Below are positions 10,194 to 26,142 of a DNA stretch of 64,000 nucleotides, one piece after another. The stretch lies in contig JBFMAZ010000013.1 of the NCBI GenBank assembly GCA_040755415.1, positions 10,877 to 74,876 on the forward strand, read 5' to 3'. This DNA comes from Thermodesulfobacteriota bacterium (lineage in GTDB: Bacteria > Desulfobacterota > QYQD01). Positions within the stretch are counted from its first letter, which is position 1. Each line of letters opens with the position of its first letter. Under the pieces are notes generated by a model. It was not told where the DNA came from, made no database searches, and worked only from the letters and a program-made list of their open reading frames with translations. Both the position numbers and the translations under genes were made by a program.

Positions 10194-11016
10194 TTATCAG
10201 TTAACAATGCGCCCTCCAGAACTCGACCCTATAGATGTTACGTTACTTACCAGGAGGCTTAAAACCACGCCTTTCGCACGAGGAGAGATTCAGTATCTAC
10301 CAACCACTGGCTCCACAAATGATGTAGCGAGAGACCTGGCAGAAAAAGGCGCTCCGGAAGGGACTATAGTTATTGCCGAAAGCCAGACTAGGGGACGGGG
10401 GCGTCTGGGCCGGACGTGGCATTCACCACCGGGTACCGGCCTCTATTTTTCCATCGTCCTCCGGCCCTCGCTCGATCCATCCGACCTCCCCAAAATCACG
10501 CTGCTGGCCGGAGTAGCCGTTGCTGAAGCTATAGAAGAAACCACCGGCCTTCACCCGCTCATCAAGTGGCCGAACGACCTCCTGTTGGCAGGTAAAAAAT
10601 TAGCCGGCATACTGGCAGAGCTTTATGGCGATATTACCTCACCTTATGTTATCCTTGGGATTGGCATAAATGTTCACACGCGCCGCGAAGAGTTCCTCCC
10701 TGAACTGCAAGAAACCGCCACCTCTCTGGACATGGCCGGCGGACAAAACATCTCGCGCGCCAATCTCCTGCAGGCCATACTTACGCATCTGGGAAGGTGG
10801 TATGAATCATTCAAGAAGGGAGCGTTTCAGCCCATCCTGGACGCCTGGCGTAAGAGATGTGTTATCATCGGCGCCCGAGTCAGGATACTCTCTGGAGAAA
10901 AAGAACTGGAGGGAACCGTTGTCGATATGGATGTGACGGGCGCTTTGCTCCTTAGGGATCAGGCCGGACAGATCCAGCGTATCTTATCCGGTGAAGTCAT
11001 ACGGTGGGAAAAATGA
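10183..11016 (+). CDS. birA: Biotin--[acetyl-CoA-carboxylase] ligase
   Basis: GRGRLGRTWHSPPGTGLYFS... (BPL GRGRxGRxW motif), C-terminal BirA_C; 277 aa without obvious N-terminal HTH. Confidence 0.85.
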   Translation: MYRNYQLTMRPPELDPIDVTLLTRRLKTTPFARGEIQYLPTTGSTNDVARDLAEKGAPEGTIVIAESQTRGRGRLGRTWHSPPGTGLYFSIVLRPSLDPSDLPKITLLAGVAVAEAIEETTGLHPLIKWPNDLLLAGKKLAGILAELYGDITSPYVILGIGINVHTRREEFLPELQETATSLDMAGGQNISRANLLQAILTHLGRWYESFKKGAFQPILDAWRKRCVIIGARVRILSGEKELEGTVVDMDVTGALLLRDQAGQIQRILSGEVIRWEK

Positions 11017-11076
11017 GTTATTCGCACCCCAGCGCATCTTCGAACCGTAAGGGACATGACGACCTGAGAATTTATA

Positions 11077-11110
11077 AAAGAGGCGGGAGATTCATCCCGC
11101 CTCTTTTTTT
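11077..11110. terminator. Bidirectional rho-independent terminator between convergent birA and adk
   Basis: aaaagAGGCGGGAgattcaTCCCGCCTcttttttt: 8-bp GC stem, 6-nt loop, A-tract upstream and T-tract downstream. Confidence 0.7.
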
Positions 11111-11126
11111 GCAAATGTAGAGGGCA

Positions 11127-11804
11127 TTAGGCCAACTGGGCCATCAATTTCTCTGAGACTACATTGATGGGCGGCGCACCATCCACGGCAACTACCTTTG
11201 GCCCCGGCACTTTCTTGAAATAATTGACTGCCGCCATGGTGCCGCTGTTGGTATCGTAATAAATATCATGCCTTTTATCAATAGCGACCGTATCCTGGTC
11301 ATCGGCCCGCGTCTTTAAATCACCTCCGCAGACCCGGCAGACCAATTTCCCATCCTTTTCTACCGGCTTGATGGCATCAATATAGACATGGTTGGGATGG
11401 TTGTTGTCATTGACGCAAAGCCTTCTGCCCATAATCCTTTCCGCGGCTGTCTTGCGGTCCAGGGCGATCTCCACGACATAGTCAAGCTTGATGCTGGCAT
11501 CATTAAGCGCCTTGTGCAGGGCCTCGGCCTGGGCCACGTTACGCGGGAAGCCGTCCAGAAGCCACCCTTTTTTACAGTCATCCTCTTTAAGCCGGTTGAG
11601 GATCATGGGGATGGTGATGTCATCCGGTACCAGATCTCCCCGGTCAATGTATGCCTTGGCCTTTTTCCCCAGCTCTGTGCCCCCGCCTATATTCTTTCTG
11701 AATATAGCGCCCGATTCGATGTGGGGTATATTATACTTCTTCTGAACAATTGCCCCCTGCGTTCCCTTGCCACTCCCATTTGGACCAAAAATTAAGATGT
11801 TCAT
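11127..11804 (-). CDS. adk: Adenylate kinase (start moved to MNIL..., AGGAGG SD)
   Basis: MNILIFGPNGSGKGTQG P-loop; LID region with CRVCGG zinc-knuckle remnant; SD aaAGGAGGagtttcATG on minus strand. Confidence 0.9.
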   Translation of the reverse strand: MNILIFGPNGSGKGTQGAIVQKKYNIPHIESGAIFRKNIGGGTELGKKAKAYIDRGDLVPDDITIPMILNRLKEDDCKKGWLLDGFPRNVAQAEALHKALNDASIKLDYVVEIALDRKTAAERIMGRRLCVNDNNHPNHVYIDAIKPVEKDGKLVCRVCGGDLKTRADDQDTVAIDKRHDIYYDTNSGTMAAVNYFKKVPGPKVVAVDGAPPINVVSEKLMAQLA

Positions 11805-11923
11805 GAAACTCCTCCTTTCGCAAAAAATCACTGTTAGGACTATAGCAAAAAACCATTAATTATTTCCAGAATAAAATGAATATACATTCAAAAAATATTT
11901 GCCCCCTTCTCTATCAGCCATCT

Positions 11924-12077
11924 GAGGCTCTTGCAAAAGTCTTATGATCGGGTTGCCGTCATTCCGGCGAACTCCGGATCAGGTCCGGGGCAGGCGCCGG
12001 AATCCAGTGATTCCGACCAGATTAAGACACTACTGGACACCGGTTTTCACCGGTGTGACGACTTTTGCAAGAGGCTC
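11924..12077. repeat. TIR element family 3, copy 1: TIR GAGGCTCTTGCAAAAGTC...GACTTTTGCAAGAGGCTC, internal GNRA-tetraloop hairpin TTCCGGCGAA(C/A)xCCGGAA and CACCGGTtttcACCGGTG hairpin
   Basis: Near-identical ends and core at 25969-26099; partial related hairpin at 17552-17631. Gives spurious small ORFs ending ...VTPVKTGVQ on minus strand. Confidence 0.7.
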
Positions 12078-12248
12078 ATCTGTAAAGACTTGTATGCCCA
12101 CCCGGGCCTTTCCGCCTTTGTCCTTGACAATCATATCTAACTCATATAAAGCAGAAAAAGTTTTCTTATTTCCCCCTTTTCTTAATGACGGAAGTGGCCG
12201 ATATAGTAATAGATACAAGGGCCTTTGTGCCCTCAAGGAGGAGGATGC

Positions 12249-13835
12249 ATGTACAGAATCCTTCATAAATATTACTTGCTTTGTCTGTCTCTCCTTCTCG
12301 TAATTACTTCGTGCTGGGGCTGCGCCCGGCTAAAGGACAAACATCCGGCCGAACCGGTGGATAGCCGGCCACAGGGCAGACTCGTTATGTTTTTAAATGG
12401 CCCGCCGCAGGCCAGCCTGAATCTCACCTTTAGCCTCAGCAGCATTGCCGTCTTCAGCGAAGAAGGCGGGTGGGAAGAGTTGCCGCTTAAACCGCAACCG
12501 ATAAACTCCCGGGGTATAATCGGACGCCAGATCATCCTCGTGGAAAGCAAGCTTGTGGCCAGGACCTATGAAAAGGTGCGCTTTACCTTTGACCGGGCGC
12601 AGATCATTAAGGAAAATAAGGCCGCAGACCTTTCCATCCCTTCTGAAGGCCTGGAGATGGATTTTAAATTCAGGATAGTCAAAGGGCAGGATACTTCAGT
12701 TTTTATCAATTGGGATGTAGATGGGTCTATAGCGGATAATTATCTATTTATCCCCGCATTTGCGCTAAAGACAGAGATTCGCGGGGTAAGAAGCCAACTG
12801 GCTTATGTAACCAATGAAGAGTCAGACAATGTAACCGTTATTAATAGAGAATGGGACGAGGTTGTTTCTACCATAGCGGTAGGAAAGGCGCCATGCGGTC
12901 TGGCCGCCGGTACAAAGAAGACCAGGCTAAGGGTATATGTGGCCAATGCCAGGTCGAATAACATCACGGTCATCGATCCGACCCTAAACCAGGTTGAGCA
13001 GGCCGTACCGGTATCATTTGGTAAACAACCCCGGGCCATTGCCGCAGCGCAGACCCGGTCGGGCAAGGAATGTCTGTTTGTGGCCAATTATGCCTCTAAC
13101 AATGTCTCCATAATTGATACGGATAATTATGAAGAGATTGCACAGGTCAGGGTAGGGGTTGGCCCCATCGCCGTAATCACCGACCCCCCCACGGACACCA
13201 TATATAATATGAAAGGGCTGACGGCCAGCCAGTTGAGTCGCTGGAGGGATTACCGGGATCAACACCTGCATATATATGTAGCCAACAGTAAGACCAACAC
13301 CGTATCCGTTATTATTTTTAATACTTCTACACTTGCTGTGCAAGATACCCATACCTTAACCGTGGGCTGGAATCCGATGGCCCTGGACGTAGATGTGGAG
13401 CGGGGTAAGGTCTATGTAGCTAATAACGCCTCTGATACGCTCTCAGTCATCGATGCATTAAAGATCATGGATGGCTCCACCTCGGACGCAGTAACCACCT
13501 TAACCAATGTAGGCACGGGTGGGGTGGACATTGCGGTTGATGCCTACTTTATGAGGCTGTATCTTTTAAAGGACCGGCCCGGTGAATTGCTCTTTCTTAA
13601 GACCCCGGTGGAGGCCATCGCTGCATCCCTGAAGTCTATCATGACACCCATAACCGGATTGATCAATATGGACGGTTCTCCCCGGTCTATGGCCCTGGAC
13701 CCTGAAAGTAGAAAGTTTTATGTCGTGGATAGTGGGGGAGATGCAGTTCACGTTATAGATAAGACTACCCGACGTCAGATAAAGAGCATTCCCGTGGGTC
13801 GTAAGCCTTATGAGATTACGATGGTTCCTTTTTGA
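12249..13835 (+). CDS. YVTN-family beta-propeller repeat lipoprotein (start at MYRIL..., lipobox ITSC)
   Basis: At least five repeats of YVAN(A/Y/S/N)xSNN(I/V)(T/S)VID type; N-terminal signal peptide with lipobox; AAGGAGGAGG SD. Confidence 0.8.
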   Translation: MYRILHKYYLLCLSLLLVITSCWGCARLKDKHPAEPVDSRPQGRLVMFLNGPPQASLNLTFSLSSIAVFSEEGGWEELPLKPQPINSRGIIGRQIILVESKLVARTYEKVRFTFDRAQIIKENKAADLSIPSEGLEMDFKFRIVKGQDTSVFINWDVDGSIADNYLFIPAFALKTEIRGVRSQLAYVTNEESDNVTVINREWDEVVSTIAVGKAPCGLAAGTKKTRLRVYVANARSNNITVIDPTLNQVEQAVPVSFGKQPRAIAAAQTRSGKECLFVANYASNNVSIIDTDNYEEIAQVRVGVGPIAVITDPPTDTIYNMKGLTASQLSRWRDYRDQHLHIYVANSKTNTVSVIIFNTSTLAVQDTHTLTVGWNPMALDVDVERGKVYVANNASDTLSVIDALKIMDGSTSDAVTTLTNVGTGGVDIAVDAYFMRLYLLKDRPGELLFLKTPVEAIAASLKSIMTPITGLINMDGSPRSMALDPESRKFYVVDSGGDAVHVIDKTTRRQIKSIPVGRKPYEITMVPF

Positions 13836-13852
13836 TAGGCCGAGGATAAGGG

Positions 13853-16198
13853 TTGGATGTTAAACTTTTAAAGGTGATGGCCAGTCGTGCCATAGGCAGA
13901 TTCGCACGCCCAGGCGTATCTTCGACCGGGGCAAACAAAGTGCCTGCCCTACGGAGGTTGTGGAGGGTAGTTATAGCCCTGGCTGTGCTTATAACTTACC
14001 CCGGCCCATCTGCCTGGGCGGTAGGTATAGGCGGCACGGCCGATATTCGTTATAACGCAACCAAACAAAAAAAGGATGGAGTCAAAACAAGCGACGGTTA
14101 TAACTTTTCTCAAAATTATTATTTAAATCTGGCCGATGAAATTACCCCTGCGCTTTCTTATAGTCTCAATTTCCGGGCCAATCACAACAAAACTTCTACT
14201 ACCCAGGACAGCATAACCACAAAAACTTACAGCCAGGGCGCTGAGCCGCAGATTGAATTCAGCCTGCATAACCCTTTTTATAATGCCAGCGCCGGCTATC
14301 AACGTACAGAGAGATGGAGCGGGGCATCTATCGCTAATGAGATACGGAAGACCGGCGATTATACCTATGCCCGGTTTGATATATCCCCACGTGACTTGCC
14401 GACTCTGGCCCTGCAGTGGGGCCGTAAACGGGATTTTGATTATCTTTCGCCCACGCGCCTCGATACCACCACCGACACCTATCTCCTGAATACAAGTTAT
14501 GATTATGCCCCTTTCAGGCTTTACTACAATTATTACCTTACCCAGACCACAGATGATGCCCCCTCAGGCAATATCTATCGCACCGAGAGAGAGGCGCACA
14601 CGCATAATGGCCGGCTGGATTACGGCCAATCATTTTTTGACGGCAAGCTGCCGGTTAATGCCAGTTACCAGGCCAACTATAACCGGAATATTATGGATAT
14701 CTTTTCCACCGCCGCCGTGGTTACAGTACAGCGGACGCCTTTTCTGGGGCTTCATAAGAGGGATACGAACACAACTCCGACTCCAACCACACTCGAGCTC
14801 GCGACCCAAAACCTCCTTACAGATGGTGAAAAGAAGCCCGATGATACAAGTACAAACATCAACGTCGGGAAAACCGGATTGCCAAATTGGAACCTTAGTT
14901 CAAATCTACAGCACAATATAGGTCTGGAGCTGACCAGTACCAAATCAGTTAAGACCCTTCGCATTTACACAAACATACCCAAGAGCGACACCTCTTTTAA
15001 CGTCCCCGGGAACGCCTTGGACCTTACCGTTTACTCAGGCACCACAGCATCCAATTGGACCGCGATAACCGGTGTTGCTTCTCCGGCTCCGAGCACCTCG
15101 GCGACAGAAGACGTTTATTTTTACGAGGTAAACTTTACTGCCCAAGAAGCCAGATTTTTCAAGGTCGTCAATACCTCAGAAACAGACCGTACTAACGTAT
15201 ATATCACAGAGATAGAAGCCTATGGGGATGAGACGGAAAAAACGGATATTACTGACCGGTTCGATCAGGGTCTGAATTTTAATACCAGCCTGAAGGCCAG
15301 GCCTGATCTGTCGGTTTCCTTCAGTTTTTACCTGACGCGCAATGACGAAGAACCATCATCCCTTCCCGAGGCGGCGAGTAATCTGTTGTCAACCATTTTT
15401 AGTAAGACCCAAAAAGGGGGGGAGGGTATATCCAGGGGGACCACTACGCGGAGCTGGGGTCCTTCTGTTAACTGGCAGCCTTATAGCAAGCTCTTGACCT
15501 CTTTGCGTTTCCAAAGGCAGGATTCGTGGGATACGGAGGGGACCACCGACTCGGCATCCAATACGTATGCCTTTTCTCTTAATTCCCCGCTTCTGGATAC
15601 GCTGGATGCCACGTTTTCGGCGACCCGCAGTGAGCAGTACAGCTTTTCTGAGAAACAGACCATAAGCGACTCCCTTCTCTTCAGTACGCTGGCTAAATTG
15701 TACGACGGCGTCAACATGGTTACAGACCTGAACTATACCACCTCGGAGTCCTTTCAAACTAATATCACTACTGATACCCTTTCCCTTAATGGTAATATAA
15801 ATGCTATACTGACACGCAGGCTGAGTGGAACCTTCACTTATGGTTTTAGCTGGCCTTCGCCTGGTACGGCCTCCAACCAGCAGTCTCTGGTGTTGACTTA
15901 TCGCCCCAGTGCGCTGTTAAATTTTATGGCCTCGCTTCAGGCCGCCGATACTGGAACCGCCCATACTTTTGGCCAGAATTACAGTATAGACTGGCTCCCA
16001 GTCCCCGTACTTAATTTTAATCTGAGCGCCCAGGAGACGGAATCAGGAGACACAAAAAACCAGACCCTTACCTTCCAGAACAGGTGGCAGATAAATAGGT
16101 ATATGGATTTTCAGTTTAATTATTCCTTTGGGCGTGTTAAATCATCGTCTGAAACGGATACCCATACCTGGGGGTTCTCGTTTACCGGACGGTTCTGA
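13853..16198 (+). CDS. Large outer-membrane beta-barrel-like protein with embedded discoidin (F5/8 type C)-like domain
   Basis: 781 aa, signal peptide ...AVLITYPGPSAWA, alternating Y/T/S/N-rich amphipathic strands, C-terminal ...WGFSFTGRF (terminal aromatic F typical of OMP barrels); central segment ...VYFYEVNFTAQEARFFKVVNTSETDRTNVYITEIEAYG resembles discoidin/F5_F8_type_C C-terminal signature. Confidence 0.6.
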   Translation: MDVKLLKVMASRAIGRFARPGVSSTGANKVPALRRLWRVVIALAVLITYPGPSAWAVGIGGTADIRYNATKQKKDGVKTSDGYNFSQNYYLNLADEITPALSYSLNFRANHNKTSTTQDSITTKTYSQGAEPQIEFSLHNPFYNASAGYQRTERWSGASIANEIRKTGDYTYARFDISPRDLPTLALQWGRKRDFDYLSPTRLDTTTDTYLLNTSYDYAPFRLYYNYYLTQTTDDAPSGNIYRTEREAHTHNGRLDYGQSFFDGKLPVNASYQANYNRNIMDIFSTAAVVTVQRTPFLGLHKRDTNTTPTPTTLELATQNLLTDGEKKPDDTSTNINVGKTGLPNWNLSSNLQHNIGLELTSTKSVKTLRIYTNIPKSDTSFNVPGNALDLTVYSGTTASNWTAITGVASPAPSTSATEDVYFYEVNFTAQEARFFKVVNTSETDRTNVYITEIEAYGDETEKTDITDRFDQGLNFNTSLKARPDLSVSFSFYLTRNDEEPSSLPEAASNLLSTIFSKTQKGGEGISRGTTTRSWGPSVNWQPYSKLLTSLRFQRQDSWDTEGTTDSASNTYAFSLNSPLLDTLDATFSATRSEQYSFSEKQTISDSLLFSTLAKLYDGVNMVTDLNYTTSESFQTNITTDTLSLNGNINAILTRRLSGTFTYGFSWPSPGTASNQQSLVLTYRPSALLNFMASLQAADTGTAHTFGQNYSIDWLPVPVLNFNLSAQETESGDTKNQTLTFQNRWQINRYMDFQFNYSFGRVKSSSETDTHTWGFSFTGRF

Positions 16199-16213
16199 AA
16201 GGAGAAGGCATTA

Positions 16214-16825
16214 TTGTTGACAGTGATACATAAAACTGATAAAAGCCGAACGTGGGCGGTTGTTTTGTTATTTTGTTTATGCTTGACTTTTGTATTATTC
16301 TTGCCTGCCTGCGCACCCGGCCGAAAGACTTATCTGCGTTCGGGCGTTGATATTCGTCAGATTACAAAGGTGGCAGTTATGCCTTTTGAGAATCTGACCA
16401 ATGATCCGTATGCAGGTAAAAAGGTGCAAGATCTCATGATTACAGAACTTTTGCGCGGGGGGCGTGTGGATGTTATCGAGCCCGGCGAGGTATTAAATGC
16501 TATACGGAGTAGCGGGATTACCTCCATCAGTGCCTTGCATATTGAAAATATAAAGATTATCGGTCAGCGGCTGCGGGTCCCGGCGGTAGTGGTGGGTTCA
16601 GTCCATGCCTTCGGCGTAACGCGGGGCGTTACGATATCCTATCCCGAGGTAACTATTCACTGTATTGTGGTGGAAACCACTTCGGGGGCAATTATTGCTT
16701 CGACCCAGTACACGTCCGGTGGAACCGGCTTCTGGAGCAGGCATTTCAAGGCGGAAGGGCCTACCTTGGGCGAGACAGCCGAGGATGCGGTAAACGTTAT
16801 AGTAAGGAGTCTGTTTTTACCATGA
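16214..16825 (+). CDS. Lipoprotein, CsgG/LpoB/PelC (TolB-N-like fold)-like single-domain, paralog 1
   Basis: Lipobox LPAC; motif VAVMPFENLTNDPYAGKKVQDLMITELLRGGRVDVIE. Confidence 0.65.
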   Translation: MLTVIHKTDKSRTWAVVLLFCLCLTFVLFLPACAPGRKTYLRSGVDIRQITKVAVMPFENLTNDPYAGKKVQDLMITELLRGGRVDVIEPGEVLNAIRSSGITSISALHIENIKIIGQRLRVPAVVVGSVHAFGVTRGVTISYPEVTIHCIVVETTSGAIIASTQYTSGGTGFWSRHFKAEGPTLGETAEDAVNVIVRSLFLP

Positions 16826-17403
16826 AGCAACGGGGGGCTTATCACTTTATAATTTGTCTTTTACTGGCGTTCACCTTTTCTGGTTGCGCCCGTGCGCCCA
16901 AGCCGAGTTTTTATATACGCCAGGACTTTGACTTTAGCTTTATAAAGAGGGTAGCCGTATTGCCCTTTGATAATCTTACCAATGAGAAGTTTGCCTCGGA
17001 AAGGATTAGAAGACTGGTAATTAATGAACTTCTGGCCTCGGGCCTGATGGATGTGGTCGTAGCCGGCGATCTTTCAGCCGCCCTTAAGGCGGCCAGGGTG
17101 GAATCAGTAACGGCCCTGCCTCCCCAGCAGATCAAGGAAATTGGCAGGGCATTAAATGCGCAGGCCATTCTTACCGGCTCAGTCGAAAGATATGAGGAAC
17201 CCAAAGGTGGAACCTTTGCCGCCCCTGAAATTTCCATTTCCTTAGTGATGGCGGAGACCGATTCTGGTTCCATTGTCTGGTCAGTAAGTGTTTCTACCGG
17301 TGGGGCAGGTTTTGGGACCCGCCATTTTGGGGCACGTGCAGATACGATCAGTGAGGCATCTGAAAAGGCGGTTAAAAAGGCGATCCGGACGCTGTATCCA
17401 TGA
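16822..17403 (+). CDS. Lipoprotein, same family, paralog 2
   Basis: Lipobox FSGC; VAVLPFDNLTNEKFASERIRRLVINELLASGLMDVV; 4-nt overlap with upstream paralog (coupled). Confidence 0.65.
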   Translation: MKQRGAYHFIICLLLAFTFSGCARAPKPSFYIRQDFDFSFIKRVAVLPFDNLTNEKFASERIRRLVINELLASGLMDVVVAGDLSAALKAARVESVTALPPQQIKEIGRALNAQAILTGSVERYEEPKGGTFAAPEISISLVMAETDSGSIVWSVSVSTGGAGFGTRHFGARADTISEASEKAVKKAIRTLYP

Positions 17404-17409
17404 GAGATA

Positions 17410-17444
17410 AAATTCGAAATACGAATATCGAAATTCGAAACAAG
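17410..17444. repeat. AT-rich cgaaat repeat (family 2) short copy
   Basis: aaattcgaaatacgaatatcgaaattcgaaacaag; same words as 45471-45630, 50473-50633, 55908-56025. Confidence 0.6.
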
Positions 17445-17551
17445 ATATTGATGGTAGAGGTACGAGATTTGCCCTGCTCAATAGTTTTTTGAACCTAGTG
17501 TAGTACGCTATAAATAGCGCAACATATATTCTGGTATTCTGGTAACAAAAA

Positions 17552-17631
17552 CCGTCATTCCTGCGAAAGCAGGAATCCAGAAAGACAAAAAGACTAGATT
17601 CCGGGTCAAGCCCGGAATGACAATTAAAGTA
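17552..17631. repeat. Partial family-3-related hairpin element (GTCATTCCTGCGAAAGCAGGAATCCAG + ATTCCGGGTCAAGCCCGGAATGAC)
   Basis: Two perfect hairpins with GAAA/tcaag loops; related to core of 11924-12077. Confidence 0.55.
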
Positions 17632-17686
17632 ACGGAACTTATAGCGCACTACACTAGACACCTCCAAGTAATTATGAAACAGCCCT

Positions 17687-18733
17687 ATGTGGAAAATACT
17701 ATCCTTTCTCTTAACTCTCCTTATTTTTTTACCTTCCTGTGCCGGGCGGACAGCACTCGATAGCGATGCCAGGCTGCCGCTGGCCCGAAAAGCTATAGCG
17801 TTGATGCCTTTTGAGAACCTTTCTGATGATAAAGAGGCCATCGAAAAGGTTATGCCCTATATACGTCAGTGGTTCAAAGACGCCGGTTTTGAAATAGTAC
17901 CCGATGAAGTAGTTGAAAGATTTCTGTTGCGGCATGAAATTAGAAGTACCGGGCGTTTTTCAGATAAAACTATCCATGGTATGGAACGCGGGCTTGGAGC
18001 CGCTTATATTCTGCTGGGAAATGTAAATTCGTGCTCTGATGACCCGTTACTATCCATCTCTACCCGCCTGGTATCCGTGCCGGATGGGAATATTGTCTGG
18101 GGCGGGCATGCCAGCCGCAGTGGGGAGGAATTTAAAACGGTTCTGGGCCTGGGTAAGATTACGACCCTGGCCGGGCTTGCCCCTGTAGTAGTTGACGAAC
18201 TTTTCTCTTCCCTCAAGCGGTTCGTGCCTCCGGATAAGGCAGAACGTGAAAAATGGCGTTTCCGGGTGGCGGTAATGCCCTTTGGAAACTTGAGCGCGCG
18301 CAAGGATGCCGGGGTTATCGCCACGTATCTATTCCTTTCGGGCATAGCGCAAAAACCGGGCTGGGCGACTGTTGAATATGGTAAGGTCTGGAATACCCTG
18401 GTTTCAGAGAACTATCCATACCGTGGAGAACTGGACTATGATACGTTGCAGGCGCTGGGCAGGAAACTTGAAGTCGATGGCATCCTGCTCGGAACAGTGG
18501 AAAAATATACTGAAGATCTGGGCGCCAAAGGACAGGTTATCCCGGAGGCAGCTATCAGCCTGCGTCTTTTATATGTTCCGAATAAAACCATTATCTGGGC
18601 AGATCGACTGGGGGCTACCGGCGAAGATGATATTTTAGTCCTGGATTGGGGGCTAATAAGAACGGCCGATAAGGTTGCCGAAAAGGTAATTAAAAAGTTA
18701 GTCACGCGTCTTCCATATATTGAGGTTAGATAA
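17687..18733 (+). CDS. Lipoprotein with tandem duplication of the same CsgG/LpoB-like domain, paralog 3
   Basis: Lipobox LPSC; two copies of the (A/V)xxxMPF(E/G)NLS motif (IALMPFENLSDDKEA..., VAVMPFGNLSARKDAG...). Confidence 0.65.
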   Translation: MWKILSFLLTLLIFLPSCAGRTALDSDARLPLARKAIALMPFENLSDDKEAIEKVMPYIRQWFKDAGFEIVPDEVVERFLLRHEIRSTGRFSDKTIHGMERGLGAAYILLGNVNSCSDDPLLSISTRLVSVPDGNIVWGGHASRSGEEFKTVLGLGKITTLAGLAPVVVDELFSSLKRFVPPDKAEREKWRFRVAVMPFGNLSARKDAGVIATYLFLSGIAQKPGWATVEYGKVWNTLVSENYPYRGELDYDTLQALGRKLEVDGILLGTVEKYTEDLGAKGQVIPEAAISLRLLYVPNKTIIWADRLGATGEDDILVLDWGLIRTADKVAEKVIKKLVTRLPYIEVR

Positions 18734-18761
18734 AATGGCCCTCTAGGAAGCGAAAAAATAA

Positions 18762-18897
18762 CAAATTCCAAAGCCAAAAGTTCAAAACAATGACAAAGTT
18801 CAAATAATACCCGACAGACTTAATGGCAGAACTTATGTGCCTCTTTATAGTTGGACTTTGAATTTGATTTGACATTTGGATTTTAGGTTTTGAAATT
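18762..18897. repeat. AT-rich imperfect palindrome (family 2-like) immediately upstream of SurA-like gene
   Basis: caaattccaaagccaAAAGTTCAAAACAATGACAAAGTTCAAATaat ... inverted partner ggactttgaatttgatttgacatttggattttaggttttgaaatt. Confidence 0.55.
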
Positions 18898-18952
18898 ATA
18901 CAGTTACCTTACCTCTGACTTGCCAGAGTTAGGTTCGGTAAAGGGGTTAGAT

Positions 18953-20635
18953 ATGTCACTATTTATATTGTTACGAAACTGTATGGTGATCGGGTTGCTC
19001 CTGTTGCTTGCGGCCTGTAGCGGATTCATGACCACAGGGGGAACCCCTGTGGCCTGGGTGGATGGCGTACCGGTAACTGAGGGAGATCTAAAAGAGGCAC
19101 TAAAGATAACCCATCGCACTGAGGCCGTACGGCCGGGTGAGCATCCCGATCTTATGGTTTATGTCAATAAATTGATCGATGAGCGCCTGATTGTCCAGGA
19201 GGCCTATCGGATGGGACTGGACAAGGACCCCTGGGTGCAAAATAAAATGCACGAGTATAAACTCAGGGAATCCGTGGTACGCCTCTATAAAGAAGAGGTT
19301 CAAGACAGGATCAGGATGAGCGATGACGAGATGCGGCGATTTTATAACGAGCAGATGGAGGAGGCACATATTCGCCAAATAACACTGGGGACTGAGGAAG
19401 AAGCCCTGAATATACGGGACCAGATTGAGGCTGGTTCTGATATGGCCGCTCTCGCCCGGGAGCATTCTATCGATATATTTAAAGATAAGGGGGGCGACCG
19501 TGGGTTTTTACGCCGGTGGCAGCTCCCGGAATCAGTTAGAGATGCGGCTTTCTCCCTCAAGGATGGCCAGATAGCACCCGTGATTAAGACTTCCTCCGGT
19601 TATCAAATAATAAAAATTGAGGAGAAGAAGGCCGCACCAGAGAAAAATTTAGAGGAGATAAGGCGGGTTGCGGAGAAATCACTGCGCAAGAAAAAAGAAG
19701 AGGCGTTAGGTCAGGAAGTTTTAAAGGGATATCGAAAGCAGGCCGATATAGTCATAAGCGGAGATTTATTGGCAGAGTTGCCGGTTTCTATTGATGCAGC
19801 AAAAGATGAAAAATGGGCCAAGGATGAACGGCCTATTGCAAAAATTGGAGAAGAAATATTGACGGTTGGCCAGTTCTGTCAACAGCTCAAAGATATGCCG
19901 GAGTCTAAGTTGGTTACCGACGATCCACTGGCCTTAAAGCGCAAGTTCATAGATAGCTGGATCGACCGCAAACTTGTAGATATAACTGCCTTGAATCGAC
20001 ATTATGAGCGGGATGAAGATTTCGGTCGTATGCTTAAGTATTATGAAGAATATTTACTAAAGAAGTTGTTTGCCCAGAAGGTTATATACCCGCAGATAAA
20101 GATTTCGGACGAACTTCTCAAAAATTATTACGACAACCACCGCGATAATTATCTTAAACCGGTTCAATACCGGATACGGCAGATTACTGTAACTGACGAG
20201 GCGCAGGCCCGGACCATCCTGGAACAACTGCGCGGGGGAGCTGATTTTGCCTGGCTGGCAAAAAATAAGTCCGAAGACGGCCTGGCTGAAAAGGGAGGAG
20301 ACAGAGGCTGGATTTCAGGAGATAGCCTACCTTCTTCCTTCGCTAAGGCTGTTTGCGACCTTAAGGTTGGGGAATTGAGCGACATATTTTCAGAAAACGG
20401 CGCATATTTTATCGTAAAGTTGGAGGCCAAATCCGATGTTGAATATGAGGACTTTGAACAAATAAAGGATGCCGTGCAAAAGGACTACGTCAAGGAAAAC
20501 TATGAGCAATTATGGACAAATTATGCCGGAGAGTTACGACAGGATGCTGAAGTCAGTATAAATACCCCCTTTATCCAGGAATTGGCGGAAAGATTCTTGC
20601 CTTCAAAAAAGGCCTCGTCCCTTGACAAGCAATGA
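18953..20635 (+). CDS. SurA/PpiD-like periplasmic chaperone lipoprotein with two parvulin PPIase domains
   Basis: Start at MSLFILL... (AAAGGGG SD; lipobox LAAC). An upstream in-frame ATG at 18890 is possible. Parvulin signatures ...SSGYQIIKIEEKK and ...NGAYFIVKLEAK; SurA_N-like region. Confidence 0.75.
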   Translation: MSLFILLRNCMVIGLLLLLAACSGFMTTGGTPVAWVDGVPVTEGDLKEALKITHRTEAVRPGEHPDLMVYVNKLIDERLIVQEAYRMGLDKDPWVQNKMHEYKLRESVVRLYKEEVQDRIRMSDDEMRRFYNEQMEEAHIRQITLGTEEEALNIRDQIEAGSDMAALAREHSIDIFKDKGGDRGFLRRWQLPESVRDAAFSLKDGQIAPVIKTSSGYQIIKIEEKKAAPEKNLEEIRRVAEKSLRKKKEEALGQEVLKGYRKQADIVISGDLLAELPVSIDAAKDEKWAKDERPIAKIGEEILTVGQFCQQLKDMPESKLVTDDPLALKRKFIDSWIDRKLVDITALNRHYERDEDFGRMLKYYEEYLLKKLFAQKVIYPQIKISDELLKNYYDNHRDNYLKPVQYRIRQITVTDEAQARTILEQLRGGADFAWLAKNKSEDGLAEKGGDRGWISGDSLPSSFAKAVCDLKVGELSDIFSENGAYFIVKLEAKSDVEYEDFEQIKDAVQKDYVKENYEQLWTNYAGELRQDAEVSINTPFIQELAERFLPSKKASSLDKQ

Positions 20636-22635
20636 AGGCTAATGATATGGTGCTGCGCATGAAAAATTCGAAATTCGAAGCTCGAAATTCGAAAATTAAA
20701 GTAGTTGGCCTTGTACTATTTGTCTGCCTTATCATTTTAAGTTGTGCTGAGGCGCCGACCAGGCCTCAGCGAGGTTTCGCTCCGAAGGCATGTCTGGACT
20801 GCCATGGCAAGAAGTTCGATGATCTCAAAAAACCTTATGTCCATGGTCCGGCGCTCGAAAAAGACTGCGAAGTATGCCATGATCGCCATGGTAAGATACC
20901 CATCAGGACATTCAAAAAACCGGGTGCCGCATTGTGTTATACCTGCCATGCCGCGGAAAAACTAGGGATAAGTGAAAAAGCTGCGGTTCATACCCCTATA
21001 AAAGAAGGCAAATGTATACCCTGTCATGCCCCGCATGCCGGTGACAATAAACTCTTCTTAAAAAAGCAGGGTAATAGCCTTTGCTTTGATTGTCACCAGG
21101 AGACTCTATTTAAAGGCGCTAAAATCCATGCCCCGTTAGAAAAGGGGTGCTTGACCTGCCACAGACCTCATGCCTCACCCCAGGCCGATCATCTTGTCAA
21201 ACCAGAGACAGAGCTTTGCCTTGGTTGCCACAACTCAGGGAGCGCCTCTTTCCGGACAGCCCATCAGAATTACCCAGTGGAAAAGGCGCATTGTACGGGA
21301 TGCCATGACCCGCATGCCACGGCCCATCCTAAGTTACTAAGACCTTCTATACATAAGCCGCTGGCGGAAAAAAGGTGTAGTTCCTGCCACCGTCCATCTG
21401 CAGATAAAGAGCCGCTAAAGGCCGTGGCTCAGGATGGCGCCCTTTGCTACTCCTGCCACGAGCAGGTGGCCAGGCGATTTGAACAGGTCTGCCGGCATAA
21501 GCCCATACAAGAGGGCAAGTGCCTGGTCTGCCATAGTCCCCATGCCACGGATTTTGTCCCCCAGTTGGTTAAGGATGTCAACTCTCTTTGTTTTGCCTGT
21601 CATAAAGAGAAGGCAGGTTCTTTGAAGGCAGGTGTGCCGCATGCGCCACTCAAAAAGCAGGGTTGTACGGCCTGTCATGATGCACATGCCTCGGCTAATA
21701 CTAGATTGCTCAAGATGGAAAAAGAGAAGCTCTGTCTCGAGTGTCATAAGAAGACAGAGGAAGAACTAAGGGCAACTTATGTACATAAACCCCTTGCATC
21801 TGATCAGTGTACGACCTGCCACAACGCCCATGGATCCAATTATAAGGGAATGCTGGGCGTATCCCCGGAGGCCCTGTGCTACAGTTGTCATAAGGAGGCC
21901 AGAGATAAATTTTATAAGGCATACGTTCATACCCCGGTAAGTAAAAAGAATTGTACAGGATGTCATAAGCCGCATGGAGCAAATTATAAATCTCTTCTCA
22001 AGCATTCCAAGGTGGATATTTGTTTCTCCTGTCATGTAGAAATGAAGAACATAGGTGCAGAAGGCAAGGGTCATCCGCCATTTATGAGGAAGGAATGCCA
22101 GGGCTGTCACGACCCCCACGCCAGTAATTATCCGATGCAGCAAGCGCTTCCACCTTCTGAACTCTGTCTGAGGTGTCATAAGAACTTCGTGGCCAAAGGA
22201 AAAGACGCCCCGGCCGTACATCAGCCGGTAAAGGAAGGAAACTGTATCAGTTGCCATAGCCCGCACGGTACAAAACTGGCCAGTTTGCTCCTCAATCAAA
22301 CCGGTGAGTTGTGTCTGTCCTGTCATGGCCAGCTAAAGGAGGCGCTGCGTTCGGCCCGGGGGCATACGCCGGTCAAGCAAGGTAATTGCCGCGGCTGCCA
22401 TCTGCCCCATTACGGAGAAGAAAAAGGGCTCTTGGCCAACCGGGATCCATTCCTCTGTCTCCAGTGCCATGCTGCCGATAAACCTACCAATATCAAGGCG
22501 CATCAGGGATTGCTCCAAAACACCAGCTTATGTCTGGAGTGTCATGAGCCGCATATATCCGCCAAAGGGAGTTTGTTGAAGAAAAATGAGCACAGTCCTT
22601 TTGCCAAGAGAGATTGCAGGCTGTGTCATAAATAA
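20632..22635 (+). CDS. Multiheme c-type cytochrome, 26 CxxCH motifs, probable lipoprotein (lipobox ILSC)
   Basis: 26 CxxCH counted by eye, many as CxxCHxPH(A/G) paired-CxxCH/c7-like repeats. N-terminal 20 codons overlap a cgaaattcgaa repeat (20661-20696); alternative start ATG 20659. Confidence 0.85.
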   Translation: MKANDMVLRMKNSKFEARNSKIKVVGLVLFVCLIILSCAEAPTRPQRGFAPKACLDCHGKKFDDLKKPYVHGPALEKDCEVCHDRHGKIPIRTFKKPGAALCYTCHAAEKLGISEKAAVHTPIKEGKCIPCHAPHAGDNKLFLKKQGNSLCFDCHQETLFKGAKIHAPLEKGCLTCHRPHASPQADHLVKPETELCLGCHNSGSASFRTAHQNYPVEKAHCTGCHDPHATAHPKLLRPSIHKPLAEKRCSSCHRPSADKEPLKAVAQDGALCYSCHEQVARRFEQVCRHKPIQEGKCLVCHSPHATDFVPQLVKDVNSLCFACHKEKAGSLKAGVPHAPLKKQGCTACHDAHASANTRLLKMEKEKLCLECHKKTEEELRATYVHKPLASDQCTTCHNAHGSNYKGMLGVSPEALCYSCHKEARDKFYKAYVHTPVSKKNCTGCHKPHGANYKSLLKHSKVDICFSCHVEMKNIGAEGKGHPPFMRKECQGCHDPHASNYPMQQALPPSELCLRCHKNFVAKGKDAPAVHQPVKEGNCISCHSPHGTKLASLLLNQTGELCLSCHGQLKEALRSARGHTPVKQGNCRGCHLPHYGEEKGLLANRDPFLCLQCHAADKPTNIKAHQGLLQNTSLCLECHEPHISAKGSLLKKNEHSPFAKRDCRLCHK

Positions 22636-22680
22636 CATGGATATCTACCGCAGAGGCACAGAGGCCGTATAGATAAATGA

Positions 22681-22740
22681 CAAATATCAAAATCCAAAGT
22701 TCAAATCAATGACAAAGTTCAAATGATGAAACATTGACAA
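22681..22740. repeat. AT-rich motif copy (AAAGTTCAAATCAATGACAAAGTTCAAATGA) upstream of 16-heme cytochrome
   Basis: Near-identical 30-mer to 18779-18808. Confidence 0.55.
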
Positions 22741-22778
22741 TACCCGGAAGGTTTATGGAGTGGAGAGATATTAACAAG

Positions 22779-24011
22779 ATGAAGGTTAAGTTAGCTATAT
22801 GGCCTTTACTGGGCTTTTTTGCCTGGATACTTACGGGCGAGGCGGCGGCAAAGCCTTCGGCTGATACCTGTTATAGCTGCCATAGCCAGTTAAAAAAGGA
22901 ATTTGCGCAAAAAACCATACATGATCCAGTAGACAAGGGCCAGTGCACAGCCTGTCACAATCCTCACGCCACGAACCAGGATAAGTTTTTAAAAGACGAG
23001 ATAAACAAGGTCTGTTATAGTTGTCACAAGGGATTGGCACAGGAACTGGGGCGTGGGCACGTTCATTCCGTACTTTTGCATGATAAATGCACGCGCTGTC
23101 ACAGTCCCCATGCCTCTGCACACAGAAATCTGCTGGCTAAAGAAGCAAATAGTTTATGCCTGGACTGCCATGAAGGTGTAAAAAAGCAGCTTGCCTTTTC
23201 CTACTCTATACCGCCCTTCCGGGAGAAGAAGTGCCTTTCTTGTCACGAACCACATGTCTCCAGGGAGGAAGGGTTGGTAAGGAAAAGTATAAATCGTCTT
23301 TGCCAGGACTGTCATGGCATTAAGTGCAAGAGTAAAGGCGTTTCTCTGGCCTTTGCCCTCCAGGATGCCGACTGCACTAACTGCCATAATCCCCACGCCT
23401 CAAACAAGAAAGGGGTTTTCAACCCTGTAGCCCATCAGTCTTTCGTTGATCAAAAATGTGAGGCATGCCACGATGCGATTGCAGCAAATAAGCCCCTTAC
23501 GACAAAGCTAACCGGCCGGGCATTATGCTTTGATTGCCATGGCAATAAGAAAGATATGCTATCTAAGATATACGTTCACGCCGGAGGAGGTACCTGCACC
23601 ACCTGTCATAATCCTCATGCCTCGCAGGATAAGGGCCTTATCTGGAAGAAAGAGAAATGGCTCTGCATCTCCTGCCATTCCGACACAGACCGGCGTGAGA
23701 AGGCATCCATTGAGAAGCAAAAAGACATCCGCTGTACGGCCATAATAGAAGGGAAATGCTCCCATTGTCATGATCCACACGCCGCAAATATGCCCCGTTA
23801 CTTTAAAGGCGATGGCGTTGATATCTGTGTAAGTTGCCATAAAAGAGAACACAGCTTATCGCATCCCCTCAGGGAAAAATCTATAGATCCGCGGACTAAC
23901 CAGCCGACTTATTGCACTACCTGTCACGGAATGCATACTGCTGAAAACAAATTTATGCTCTATTTCGACCGCAAAAGGGAACTGTGTATAGAGTGTCATA
24001 AAAGGGATTAA
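22779..24011 (+). CDS. Multiheme c-type cytochrome, 16 CxxCH motifs, secreted
   Basis: Start at MKVKLAIWPLLGFFAWILTGEAAA (signal peptide); 16 CxxCH; same repeat architecture as upstream 26-heme protein. ORF-track start 22734 also possible. Confidence 0.85.
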   Translation: MKVKLAIWPLLGFFAWILTGEAAAKPSADTCYSCHSQLKKEFAQKTIHDPVDKGQCTACHNPHATNQDKFLKDEINKVCYSCHKGLAQELGRGHVHSVLLHDKCTRCHSPHASAHRNLLAKEANSLCLDCHEGVKKQLAFSYSIPPFREKKCLSCHEPHVSREEGLVRKSINRLCQDCHGIKCKSKGVSLAFALQDADCTNCHNPHASNKKGVFNPVAHQSFVDQKCEACHDAIAANKPLTTKLTGRALCFDCHGNKKDMLSKIYVHAGGGTCTTCHNPHASQDKGLIWKKEKWLCISCHSDTDRREKASIEKQKDIRCTAIIEGKCSHCHDPHAANMPRYFKGDGVDICVSCHKREHSLSHPLREKSIDPRTNQPTYCTTCHGMHTAENKFMLYFDRKRELCIECHKRD

Positions 24012-24023
24012 GGAGCTTGCGGT

Positions 24024-24983
24024 ATGGCTTTGATATTTGGCAGGATCAGGTTTTTATTAATTGTCCTTGTGCTGTGTAGCATTATGTCGGTTTTTTTCGC
24101 ACTTAATCCTTGTATTGCCCAGCAAAAGGCACCCTTTGCCCTCCAGGTTGGTTTTACACAACTGGAAGGCATGGGCAAATTGAAGCAGATCCGGAGCCTT
24201 TTCTGGTCACAGGCCAAAAATAGACTGCTTGTGGCCGATACCGGCAATAACCGCCTGCTTTTCTTTGGCGACAGCGAGGGTAAATTCCGGTTCCTGTCTG
24301 AATTTAAATCTGACAAAATGGTGTTACCCATTAGCGCTGTAGAGACCAGCCAGGGGACGATTATAGTCATTGAGCGAGGTGCTCAGAGTATTATCAGTTA
24401 TAATCCTGAGACCGGCGAGAGACGCGGCATTCTTGGGGATGAATTTCCTGATGCCTCGTCCTTCTGGCCTACTTATCTGGCCTTAGATGATAAGGACAAT
24501 CTTTATGTCGTGGATCAAGGGAACCAGAGAATTTACATTTTTGATGGAAGTCTAAGGTATAAGCTCCATATAAATTCTCCTGAACCGAAGTTCACAGGAT
24601 TTTCAGCGGTGGCAGTTGATAAGGACGGGAACATAATTGCGCTTGAGGCCCAGCGCGGTATAATCTATGTCTTCGATAAAGAAGGAAAGATTATCCGCCA
24701 GGTTAGTAAGCGCGGGGAGCTCCGCGGAGAAACTGAATTTCCGGTGGACATAGCTGTGGACGGACAGGGGCGCATTTACATCCTGGATTCTCACCGGCAT
24801 CAGGTCGTTCTTCTTGACCGGGAAGGAAATTGGCAGGGGGAGATAGGCGAAAAGGGGTGGAAGGAAGGAAAGCTCATATTCCCCCATCGGATAGCGGCAG
24901 CTTCTGATTACCGCCTGTTTATCGTTGATGCCGATGATAATCGCCTGCAGGTTTTTATCCCGGCCGGGGGATCGGGGCAATAG
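24024..24983 (+). CDS. NHL-repeat beta-propeller protein, secreted
   Basis: Signal peptide; repeats ...LLVADTGNNRLLFFGD..., ...LYVVDQGNQRIYIFD..., ...IYILDSHRHQVVLLD..., ...LFIVDADDNRLQVF... (NHL). Confidence 0.8.
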   Translation: MALIFGRIRFLLIVLVLCSIMSVFFALNPCIAQQKAPFALQVGFTQLEGMGKLKQIRSLFWSQAKNRLLVADTGNNRLLFFGDSEGKFRFLSEFKSDKMVLPISAVETSQGTIIVIERGAQSIISYNPETGERRGILGDEFPDASSFWPTYLALDDKDNLYVVDQGNQRIYIFDGSLRYKLHINSPEPKFTGFSAVAVDKDGNIIALEAQRGIIYVFDKEGKIIRQVSKRGELRGETEFPVDIAVDGQGRIYILDSHRHQVVLLDREGNWQGEIGEKGWKEGKLIFPHRIAAASDYRLFIVDADDNRLQVFIPAGGSGQ

Positions 24984-25002
24984 TTAGTGTTCATCCGGAA
25001 AC

Positions 25003-25142
25003 CCCGGTTTTTTCCCTCTCCCCTGGCGGGAGAGGGTTAGGGTGAGGGGGATAACCTAGCGATTTTCCTATCAGTTCACCCTCCCCCCCAACCCCCTCCC
25101 GTCGAGGGAGGGGGGAGTTTTTAGGGGTTTCCGGATGGACAC
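25003..25142. repeat. Complex ~140-bp GC-rich palindromic element (CCCTCTCCCCTGGCGGGAGAGGG and CCCTCCCGTCGAGGGAGGG hairpins nested in outer TCCGGAAACCCC...GGGGTTTCCGGA arms)
   Basis: Read directly; shares CCCTCCC/GGGAGGG and CCCCCTCACCC words with MITE core and in-frame palindromes. Confidence 0.6.
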
Positions 25143-25262
25143 TAGTTAGATTAACTGTAACGAGATCTTCTGAGTCATAAAATAATAAACTTAGAACCCC
25201 TCACCGTGGTCTTTAGTCTAGCCACGTGAGGGGTTTTATACTAATACGGAGGGTATAGGATA

Positions 25263-25883: not shown

Positions 25884-25968
25884 ATGTGTTAGCCACGAAT
25901 ACGCACGAATGTACACAAATTATACAAATAAAACAGACGCAATGAGATGCTATAAAATGGTTTCTATC

Positions 25969-26099
25969 GAGCCTCTTGCAAAAGTCTTGTAAATGGCGTT
26001 CTTGTCATTCCGGCGAAAGCCGGAATCCAGTAATTTCAAGCAGTTTAGATACCTCTGGACACCGGTTTTCACCGGTGTGACGATTTTTGCAAGAACCTC
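25969..26099. repeat. TIR element family 3, copy 2
   Basis: GAGCCTCTTGCAAAAGTC...GTCATTCCGGCGAAAGCCGGAATCCAG...CTGGACACCGGTTTTCACCGGTGTGACGATTTTTGCAAGAACCTC; matches 11924-12077. Confidence 0.7.
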
Positions 26100-26142
26100 T
26101 ATCTGTTCGAGTTTATTCGTGTCAATTTGTGGCAAGCAGTTC

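Follow-up and report, generated by a model that had tools for sequence, protein, structure and literature searches.

Three tandem PelC-like predicted lipoproteins as probable parts of an Oet/Hml multihaem cytochrome conduit

Three tandem genes, referred to here as P1, P2 and P3, lie inside a known Oet/Hml porin-multihaem-cytochrome cluster, and not in a polysaccharide or curli exporter, and they encode four domains whose closest relative of solved structure is PelC, the lipoprotein which forms a 12-subunit ring on the PelB barrel in PelBC, the Pel-exopolysaccharide exporter (5T10/5T11, 5T0Z, 9H80; Benedens 2025, PMC12141448). The three proteins are probably structural parts of the Oet/Hml conduit which have so far gone unrecognised. 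Oet/Hml is the foremost candidate for carrying electrons across the outer membrane in direct interspecies transfer between methane-oxidising archaea and the sulfate reducers that partner them, and the cluster is widespread in metal reducers and Nitrospirota; the current model of it comprises three parts, for which there is no structure. The conduit is nearly always accompanied by three or four conserved PelC-like domains, which are candidate subunits for its reconstitution, heterologous expression and cryo-EM, and their presence joins two fields, that of polysaccharide export rings and that of porin-cytochrome conduits.

In the window (the whole 64,000-nucleotide stretch of DNA that was analysed), the genes of the cluster, a setting which the initial annotation leaves unmentioned, lie on the + strand in the order YVTN propeller, OetI, P1-P3, SurA-like peptidyl-prolyl isomerase (PPIase), 26-haem cytochrome, 16-haem cytochrome and NHL propeller. 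The conserved cluster opens with the gene for a DUF4382 and YVTN beta-propeller lipoprotein (12225-13835; Pfam DUF4382, YNCE and Lactonase, NCBIfam YVTN repeats), which occupies the same position in related loci. Downstream of P3 come a SurA/PrsA-like PPIase with two parvulin domains and a lipobox-like N-terminus (18890-20635; Pfam Rotamase_2, Rotamase and Rotamase_3), a 26-haem c-type cytochrome of the OetB/HmlB type (20632-22635; 26 CxxCH motifs, lipobox-like I-L-S-C), which is made up of MtrA/DmsE-like repeats and has Paired_CXXCH and DmsE-family matches, a 16-haem c-type cytochrome of the OetA/HmlA type (22734-24011; 16 CxxCH motifs, signal-peptidase-I type signal peptide), and an NHL six-bladed beta-propeller (24024-24983; Pfam NHL), which is the last gene of the unit. 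These four genes are the published four-gene core, in the same order. The transcription unit likely ends at a GC-rich hairpin followed by a T run (25092-25114, + strand), a consensus match only; its 9 stem pairs, 8 of them G-C, make it the strongest terminator-like site on the + strand between 11800 and 26200, and the + strand sites within the cluster (14613, 15370, 16244, 19768 and 22801) have stems of 5-7 pairs with 3-4 G-C pairs.

The OetABI/Hml cluster has been described in syntrophic sulfate reducers and Desulfuromonadales (Skennerton 2017, PMC5539420; Murali 2023, PMC10553843), and the published Oet model names only OetA, OetB and OetI and proposes no role for the three genes lying between OetI and the PPIase. 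In a supplementary table these genes appear unlabelled between "omb" and the PPIase, annotated as lipoprotein, DUF799 or CsgG (Murali 2023, PMC10553843). Their relationship to PelC, the census of their domains and their orthogroups are new to the present work; a literature search combining PelC-like, DUF799 and LpoB-like terms with multihaem or electron transfer listed no paper in which any of the three lipoprotein terms occurs, and none was found for the locus tags HS1_000550-554. In Geobacter sulfurreducens the cluster may, according to the literature, lie around GSU2494-GSU2497, and GSU2495 is the 26-haem protein. An OmpA-like peptidoglycan anchor, which one GenBank annotation suggests for the middle protein, did not turn up in the 500-aa Desulfuromonadales protein, whose only match was a weak FlgD Ig-like one.

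The gene upstream of P1 (13853-16198, +) encodes a 781-aa protein with a C-terminal Phe which the initial annotation took to be an outer-membrane barrel, and its predicted model bears this out, showing a very large beta-barrel with about 28 strands. The protein is OetI by the published tree, in which TSA07108.1 and HEC99610.1, 84-85% identical to it, are leaves. A discoidin/CBM32-like domain is inserted in the barrel at about residues 290-460, and the model contains no periplasmic helical domain. Its best structural match is MtrB, at a sequence identity of only 8-10%, and LptD is also among the matches.

P1 (16214-16825, +; 203 aa) and P2 (16822-17403, +; 193 aa) each consist of a single PelC-like domain, copies a and b of one type (A), and P3 (17687-18733, +; 348 aa) contains two, an N-terminal domain of type C1, which includes the signal peptide (17687-18241, +), and a C-terminal domain of type C2 (18242-18733, +). 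All three reading frames are as the initial annotation placed them, and the 4-nt overlap of the first two genes can be read directly in the sequence as ATGA. The paralogy proposed there is far beyond chance, since the four alpha/beta domains (1+1+2) can be aligned over their full length, with 38% identity between P1 and P2 (E 2e-46) and 26-27% identity between P2 and both halves of P3 (E 3e-11 and 1e-8). The motif said to recur four times, written as [AVI][AVI][LVM][LM]PF[EDG]NL[TS], has exactly 4 matches in the six frames of the 64 kb window, all of them in P1-P3 and two in P3, whereas a second proposed element, G..DV(V/I), is present in P1 and P2 and is replaced by AGFEIV and PGWATV in the halves of P3. 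An exact look-up of the P3 protein returned no identical record.

Lipoboxes were likewise correctly attributed to all three proteins in the window (L-P-A-C in P1, F-S-G-C in P2, L-P-S-C in P3), which are accordingly predicted to be outer-membrane lipoproteins. The lipobox does not, however, hold as a family feature of the two-domain protein, because 47 of 50 two-domain orthologues elsewhere lack one as defined by a simple regular expression and have signal-peptidase-I type signal peptides instead. Among the P1 and P2 orthologues whose lipobox could be recognised, most have 18-22 residues between the lipobox Cys and the first strand, and A, G or S predominates at the +2 position. Between P2 and P3 lies an intergenic spacer of 283 nt (17404-17686) filled with genome-wide short repeats, among them a member of family D2 (17410-17458) and a hairpin repeat (17556-17577). 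No + strand terminator was found in this spacer, and an Rfam scan of 11000-26500 gave no match, so that the gap is repeat DNA and not a known RNA; it is not part of the machine. Contigs of close relatives end at this spacer.

The CsgG/LpoB/PelC-like fold suggested at the outset was borne out and can be sharpened, because among solved structures PelC is the closest relative both in sequence profile and in predicted fold. When the profile of the P2 family was searched against the PDB, ring-forming PelC came first (5T11, E 4e-9; 9H80_C, E 1.7e-5; 5T0Z, E 0.011), rather than an unrelated family with no ring-forming precedent, and LpoB reached only E of about 0.1; a phmmer search with P2 also found PelC (5T11, E 3e-6). 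The AlphaFold model of P3 (pLDDT 82.7, pTM 0.81, with a short, low-confidence N-terminus) has PelC chains as its top Foldseek matches, with target-normalised TM-scores of 0.65-0.78, followed by GNA1162, FlgT, LpoB, CsgG and TolB-N. The Pfam LpoB family scores above its gathering threshold for P2 (31.2 bits vs 22.3) and P3 (25.9) and below it for P1, but the NCBIfam LpoB equivalog TIGR02722 gives only 26 and 19 bits where 110.55 are required, a combination which indicates membership of the superfamily and not orthology. Pfam CsgG, with 14-15 bits, falls short of its threshold of 20.8, TolB_N and GNA1162 are weak and also below their Pfam thresholds, and the P3 model, with domains of about 165 aa, has no transmembrane or extended hairpins of the CsgG type.

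The genomic setting of the family was surveyed in 80 loci from Nitrospirota, Thermodesulfobacteriota, Desulfuromonadales, Acidobacteriota and NC10, and in these the PelC-like gene nearly always follows a barrel gene. The open reading frame that ends immediately before the first PelC-like gene is haem-free and at least 550 aa long in 57 of 63 loci, and its final residue is aromatic in 49 of those 57, so that the association with the adjacent barrel which had been proposed for the window is strongly supported by synteny. Multihaem cytochromes are linked in 67 of the 80 loci, most of the others being short contigs, and where there is enough downstream DNA a cytochrome of at least 10 haems is found in 49 of 55 loci and a PPIase in 48 of 55. 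A minimal variant of the cluster comprises the barrel, one PelC-like lipoprotein, an NHL propeller and a decahaem cytochrome. This linkage bears directly on the reading that the proteins have a true PelC/Pel-, CsgG- or LpoB-type function (polysaccharide export, curli or peptidoglycan synthase activation) unrelated to cytochromes, which is highly improbable: the likeness to PelC in sequence and fold and the passing Pfam LpoB score speak for it, but the cytochromes accompany the family in most of the loci surveyed, the flanks consist of housekeeping genes with no pel, csg or PBP genes among them, and the LpoB equivalog and CsgG results given above point the other way.

The best cross-locus match of a domain occupies the same domain position in 40 of 40 cases for P1 and in 38, 39 and 39 of 40 cases for the other three positions, by which each of the four positions can be assigned to an orthogroup of its own. 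Sequence comparison distinguishes three ancient orthologous types: A, which is duplicated here as P1 and P2, and C1 and C2, which are fused here in P3. Separate genes encode C1 and C2 in some lineages and they are fused in many others, which argues that the two are physical neighbours, and the number of PelC-like domains per locus is 4, 3 or 1. In all types a Gly-rich loop after strand 5 carries a conserved aromatic (FW in a, F in b, F in c1 and W in c2); a conserved loop of the P1 orthologues reads GG..FW.RHFG.

A hetero-oligomeric ring is suggested by the combination of PelC homology, four non-redundant orthogroups and gene fusion, and of the mechanisms considered a hetero-oligomeric collar appears to be the best supported. 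The linkage to barrel and cytochromes, the Cys-to-strand spacing and the +2 residue also count in its favour. That P1-P3 are dedicated accessory subunits of the OetI-type conduit in the form of such a collar is close to an even proposition, falling slightly short of it; ring formation, stoichiometry and a role in holding cytochromes are what we infer from these observations. The N-terminal lipid anchors would most likely tether the proteins to the inner leaflet of the outer membrane, and the PelC-like domains would assemble side by side into a collar at the periplasmic rim of the MtrB-like barrel (about 28 strands), much as PelC forms its ring on PelB. Such a collar may stabilise the barrel, and it may position a haem wire, composed of the 26-haem lipoprotein and the 16-haem periplasmic cytochrome, at the barrel entry. 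A strict stoichiometry of 12 = 3x4 is not required, since some variants have three domains and others only one. The hypothesis is testable in a tractable host.

Several observations count against a collar. LpoB, GNA1162 and TolB-N, which share the fold, form no rings, the D-loop Asp of PelC is absent, the domains are mostly basic, there is no TPR stalk, the domain count varies (4, 3 or 1), and the two-domain protein is usually without a lipobox. Some of these would fit scaffolds that are not rings, in which single copies of the domains serve as adaptors for barrel turns, the YVTN or NHL propellers or cytochromes, or one domain fills the lumen of the barrel, as LptE fills that of LptD. Such an arrangement is unlikely, since the closest relatives by sequence and structure are ring-forming PelC and not LpoB, and the aromatic loop resembling that around PelC Trp-149 and the C1-C2 fusion suit side-by-side packing, although the fold-sharing proteins act as monomers or dimers, the domain number differs between cluster variants, the D-loop Asp is missing, and the structural matches of the barrel include LptD.

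It is also possible, but somewhat doubtful, that the proteins are transient biogenesis factors which work with the SurA-like PPIase to fold and insert the barrel, or to thread or export the 26-haem cytochrome, and are not stoichiometric parts. In nearly every locus the PelC-like genes are flanked by the genes for the barrel and for a chaperone-type PPIase, PelC itself acts in an export step, and several of the partners are lipoproteins that need sorting; three or four orthogroups maintained over several phyla, together with a conserved aromatic loop that would face the membrane, are nevertheless better suited to fixed structural positions. We know of no chaperone with a PelC-like fold.

Beyond a simple collar, the Oet conduit could be a far larger machine, either a collar which clamps the haem wire or a PelBC-like gate which threads giant cytochromes to the surface, and this must at present be considered improbable. 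In such a machine 12 domains might be arranged, for example, as 3x(a+b+c1+c2) or 4x(A+C1+C2), with the haem wire, which we take to be about 200 Å long as estimated from the haem spacing in MtrA, running through the 28-strand barrel; as an export gate, the barrel, the collar and the SurA-like chaperone would form a re-used gate of the PelBC type. If true, either version would give extracellular electron transfer an architecture of a new kind and would provide the first PelC-type ring that is heteromeric.

Comparison with PelC itself reveals both likenesses and differences. Both families consist of lipoproteins of about 160 aa (lipidation being predicted for P1-P3) whose genes adjoin that of an outer-membrane barrel. 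In PelC, Trp-149 sandwiches the lipid anchors and is needed for the assembly of the ring and of PelBC, and in all four types an aromatic in the Gly-rich loop falls within two alignment positions of it, an equivalence which is uncertain because the alignment is gapped there. PelC Asp-119, which lies in the D-loop G-L-D119-G and contacts arginines of PelB, aligns instead with a hydrophobic position (Phe in the P2 loop KGGTFAAPE), and none of the four orthogroups has a conserved D-loop Asp. PelC is a single homo-oligomer encoded beside PelB in the pelABCDEFG operon, whereas here three or four paralogous domain types, two of them fused, are encoded among cytochromes, propellers, a PPIase and a barrel of about 28 strands. 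PelB consists of TPRs and a 16-strand barrel, and the electronegative PelC ring has 12 subunits and a 3.2 nm pore. In contrast, three of the four mature domains here are basic, with pI values of 8.7, 8.8, 6.0 (N-terminal domain of P3) and 8.4, although a whole-domain pI is a crude proxy for surface charge. The TPR/stalk helix of PelB is needed for the docking of PelC and has no counterpart in the model of the MtrB-like OetI, and the 28-strand barrel is much wider than the 16-strand barrel of PelB, so that the PelC ring, with its 12 subunits and 3.2 nm pore, would have to be altered to fit it. P1-P3 were rejected as true PelC orthologues because pel genes are absent, the D-loop Asp has not been retained and most of the domains have a basic pI.

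The alpha/beta fold is also shared with LpoB, GNA1162/DUF799, CsgG, FlgT and the TolB N-domain. LpoB, the activator of PBP1b, differs in having a long disordered linker that spans the periplasm, as against the 18-22 residues from Cys to first strand found here, and orthology with it was rejected because of this and the TIGR02722 scores far below cut-off; identity with CsgG was rejected because the domains score below the Pfam threshold, the P3 model lacks the transmembrane hairpins that form the 36-strand pore, and CsgG ranks after PelC, GNA1162 and LpoB among the structural matches. The likeness to MtrCAB (6R2Q) lies in the barrel, of which MtrB is the top structural match, and in the 26-haem protein, which has MtrA/DmsE-like decahaem repeats. 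The low sequence identity between MtrB and the OetI barrel sets the two apart. To our knowledge the Mtr complex contains no PelC-like lipoproteins, propellers or PPIase. With the Oet/Hml cluster, finally, the window has everything in common that defines it here: the PPIase, the 26-haem and 16-haem cytochromes, the NHL and YVTN propellers, and OetI.

The three lipoprotein genes, here called P1 (16214-16825, 203 aa), P2 (16822-17403, 193 aa) and P3 (17687-18733, 348 aa), lie on the same strand, and each ORF begins with a signal peptide that terminates in a lipobox-like sequence (L-P-A-C, F-S-G-C and L-P-S-C, respectively). P1 and P2 share 38% identity (E 2e-46), each half of P3 is 26-27% identical to P2 (E 3e-11 and 1e-8), and the four domains, one each in P1 and P2 and two in P3, can all be aligned end to end. 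The initial annotation described three tandem paralogous lipoproteins with a motif that recurs four times, and this observation is confirmed, because the ORFs, the paralogy, the four motif copies and the lipobox-like sequences were all found: in a six-frame translation of the window the motif occurs exactly four times, always inside the P1-P3 ORFs, and the 4-nt overlap claimed for the first two genes reads ATGA. By a simple regular-expression lipobox test, P1, P2 and their orthologues are nearly always predicted lipoproteins. A test of the same kind detects no lipobox in 47 of the 50 two-domain P3 orthologues (loci L014-L056), which have signal peptides of the signal-peptidase-I type; the lipobox-bearing two-domain orthologues in the scanned loci are those of L012 and L013, close relatives of the window, and L054 (NC10), and P3 lipidation is predicted to be mostly confined to the window clade, with one NC10 locus in addition.

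The CsgG/LpoB/PelC-like fold proposed for these proteins is upheld by domain families, by profile searches of solved structures and by structural matches. P2 and P3 score above threshold against the Pfam LpoB domain family, matches of P1-P3 to TolB_N, CsgG and GNA1162 are weak, and scoring against the curated equivalog model for LpoB falls well short of the cut-off. The best match of the single P2 sequence among all solved structures is PelC (5T11, E 3e-6; 9H80 chain C), and a P2 family profile of 25 sequences matches PelC from three species with E values of 4e-9, 1.7e-5 and 0.011, with LpoB and GNA1162 remaining at about 0.1. The AlphaFold model of P3 (pLDDT 82.7, pTM 0.81) contains two alpha/beta domains, and its top matches in the PDB are exclusively PelC chains (TMt 0.65-0.78), followed by GNA1162, FlgT, LpoB, CT253, CsgG and the TolB N-domain. 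Within the fold superfamily, P1-P3 are closest to PelC.

The main addition to the initial annotation is that these genes sit in an Oet/Hml electron conduit, a porin-multihaem-cytochrome cluster. The 781-aa ORF upstream of P1 (13853-16198), which encodes the outer-membrane barrel OetI, has no match in Pfam; its model (pLDDT 81) predicts about 28 long strands arranged as a barrel and an inserted beta-sandwich domain that spans approximately residues 290-460, and in a Desulfuromonadales orthologue the insert scores just short of the threshold for F5/8 type C. The gene before the barrel encodes a lipoprotein with a DUF4382/YVTN propeller. Downstream of P3 lie four genes, for a SurA-like PPIase with two parvulin domains, cytochromes with exactly 26 and exactly 16 CxxCH motifs, and an NHL propeller, after which the strongest plus-strand terminator-like hairpin is found. 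Skennerton et al. (PMC5539420) described the PPIase, the 26-haem and 16-haem cytochromes and the six-bladed propeller as a core of four genes, present in the partners of archaea that oxidise methane, in Desulfuromonadales and in other groups, and termed its flanking genes "proteins of unknown function". The names OetA, OetB and OetI come from Murali et al. (PMC10553843), whose supplementary table places three unlabelled genes, annotated as lipoprotein, DUF799 or CsgG, between the barrel ("omb") and the PPIase (for example AMM40357-40359 of Ca. Desulfofervidus auxilii); TSA07108.1 and HEC99610.1, leaves of the OetI tree in that study, are 84-85% identical to the window barrel. An incomplete search of the literature found no paper on the role or PelC relationship of the three genes. 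The find is moderately new: the cluster has been described before, and the kinship with PelC, the set of three domain types and the pattern of fusions appear undescribed.

Short intergenic repeat families are abundant across the genome (17404-17686, 18757-18805, 20664-20712, 22683-22731, 11947-12077, 25993-26099 and many more sites), including the family AAATTCGAAAT.CGAA, with 8 copies, and hairpin repeats such as GTCATTCC.GCGAAAGC.GGAATC. A repeat copy fills the gap between P2 and P3, where the contigs of close relatives end. The real start codon of the 26-haem cytochrome may lie downstream of 20632, because this annotated 5' end overlaps the copy at 20664-20712. Past the cluster, a DUF2155 protein gene (25263-25883) and an opposite-strand cytochrome gene (26143-27147), whose equivalents in related loci carry 5 CxxCH motifs, are conserved in position in close relatives. 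At 33861-36202, two adjoining ORFs both match the N6/N4 DNA methylase family, although the first covers the profile only in part; they may represent a methyltransferase gene that has been split or duplicated.

Judged from database searches, the PelC-like proteins of the cluster are a small, specialised family: P3 has only 15 relatives in a set of 5.8 billion proteins, and the P2 profile retrieves 121 cluster representatives (E <= 1e-30) among 1.84 billion. A genome scan with this profile produced 80 loci, every one in a metagenome-assembled genome, from Nitrospirota/Thermodesulfovibrionales, Thermodesulfobacteriota, Desulfuromonadales, Acidobacteriota, NC10 and unclassified bacteria. Loci of the window type conserve the order NHL, YVTN, barrel, P1, P2, P3, PPIase, 26-haem and 16-haem cytochrome. 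In 57 of 63 loci, the ORF that ends just upstream of the first PelC-like gene is haem-free and 550 aa or longer, and 49 of these 57 ORFs have the aromatic C-terminal residue that is a barrel-like trait; the suggested association with the barrel is strongly supported by synteny. Where 4.5 kb or more of downstream sequence is available (55 loci), a cytochrome with at least 10 haems is present in 49 and a PPIase in 48. P1-P3 very probably serve the Oet conduit specifically, as subunits or as factors; that they are transient biogenesis or export factors acting with the PPIase seems rather unlikely. In a distant minimal variant (L084-L090; e.g. L088 8066-14164), a barrel of 610-670 aa is accompanied by one lipoprotein resembling PelC/LpoB (about 250-280 aa), by an NHL propeller and by a decahaem cytochrome to which a thioredoxin-like domain is fused. 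Desulfuromonadales loci (L070-L081; e.g. L074 10574-12073) have a 12-haem cytochrome upstream of the barrel and a middle protein of about 500 aa, in which one PelC-like domain is detectable and the extra sequence has only a weak FlgD Ig-like match.

PelC-like domains were counted in each locus with an iterated domain HMM. All complete loci of the window type have 1+1+2 domains, those of NC10 and Acidobacteriota have 1+2, those of Desulfuromonadales and one further group have 1+1+1, and the minimal variant has a single domain. The best cross-locus match of a domain is the domain at the same position in 40/40, 38/40, 39/40 and 39/40 cases, which gives one orthogroup per position, and three-domain systems map onto types A (P1 and P2), C1 (N-terminal in P3) and C2 (C-terminal in P3). 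These sequence relationships point to an ancestral set of three non-interchangeable domain types, of which A is duplicated in the window lineage and C1 and C2 are fused in many lineages; because C1 and C2 are separate proteins elsewhere, their fusion argues that they are physical neighbours. The best-supported reading, to which we give slightly less than an even chance, is that the predicted lipoproteins P1 and P2 would form, with P3, a hetero-oligomeric collar where OetI opens to the periplasm, which would stabilise the barrel and hold the cytochrome wire in position. We infer ring formation here; that P1-P3 are instead non-ring adaptors, or a plug like LptE, is unlikely.

A genuine Pel, LpoB or CsgG function is very improbable, and membership of the Pel system is rejected: there are no pel genes around the window cluster, the domains are mostly basic, and features of PelC and PelB differ. 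Twelve PelC subunits form a ring that sits on the periplasmic rim of PelB, a 16-strand barrel. The assembly is defined by three features: the TPR/stalk helix of PelB nucleates the ring, Asp-119, in a loop flanked by Gly, contacts arginines of PelB, and the lipid anchors are sandwiched by Trp-149, which assembly requires (Benedens et al. 2025, PMC12141448). In the profile alignment the position of Asp-119 is hydrophobic and non-conserved in the P1-P3 types, and the OetI model, unlike PelB, has no predicted periplasmic helical domain. Near Trp-149, all four orthogroups have a loop rich in Gly in which an aromatic residue is conserved (GG..FW.RHFG, GGA.F.ARHFG, G.DF and LDWG); equivalence to Trp-149 is uncertain because the alignment is gapped at that place. 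P1-P3 are relatives of PelC that may work in a PelC-like way.
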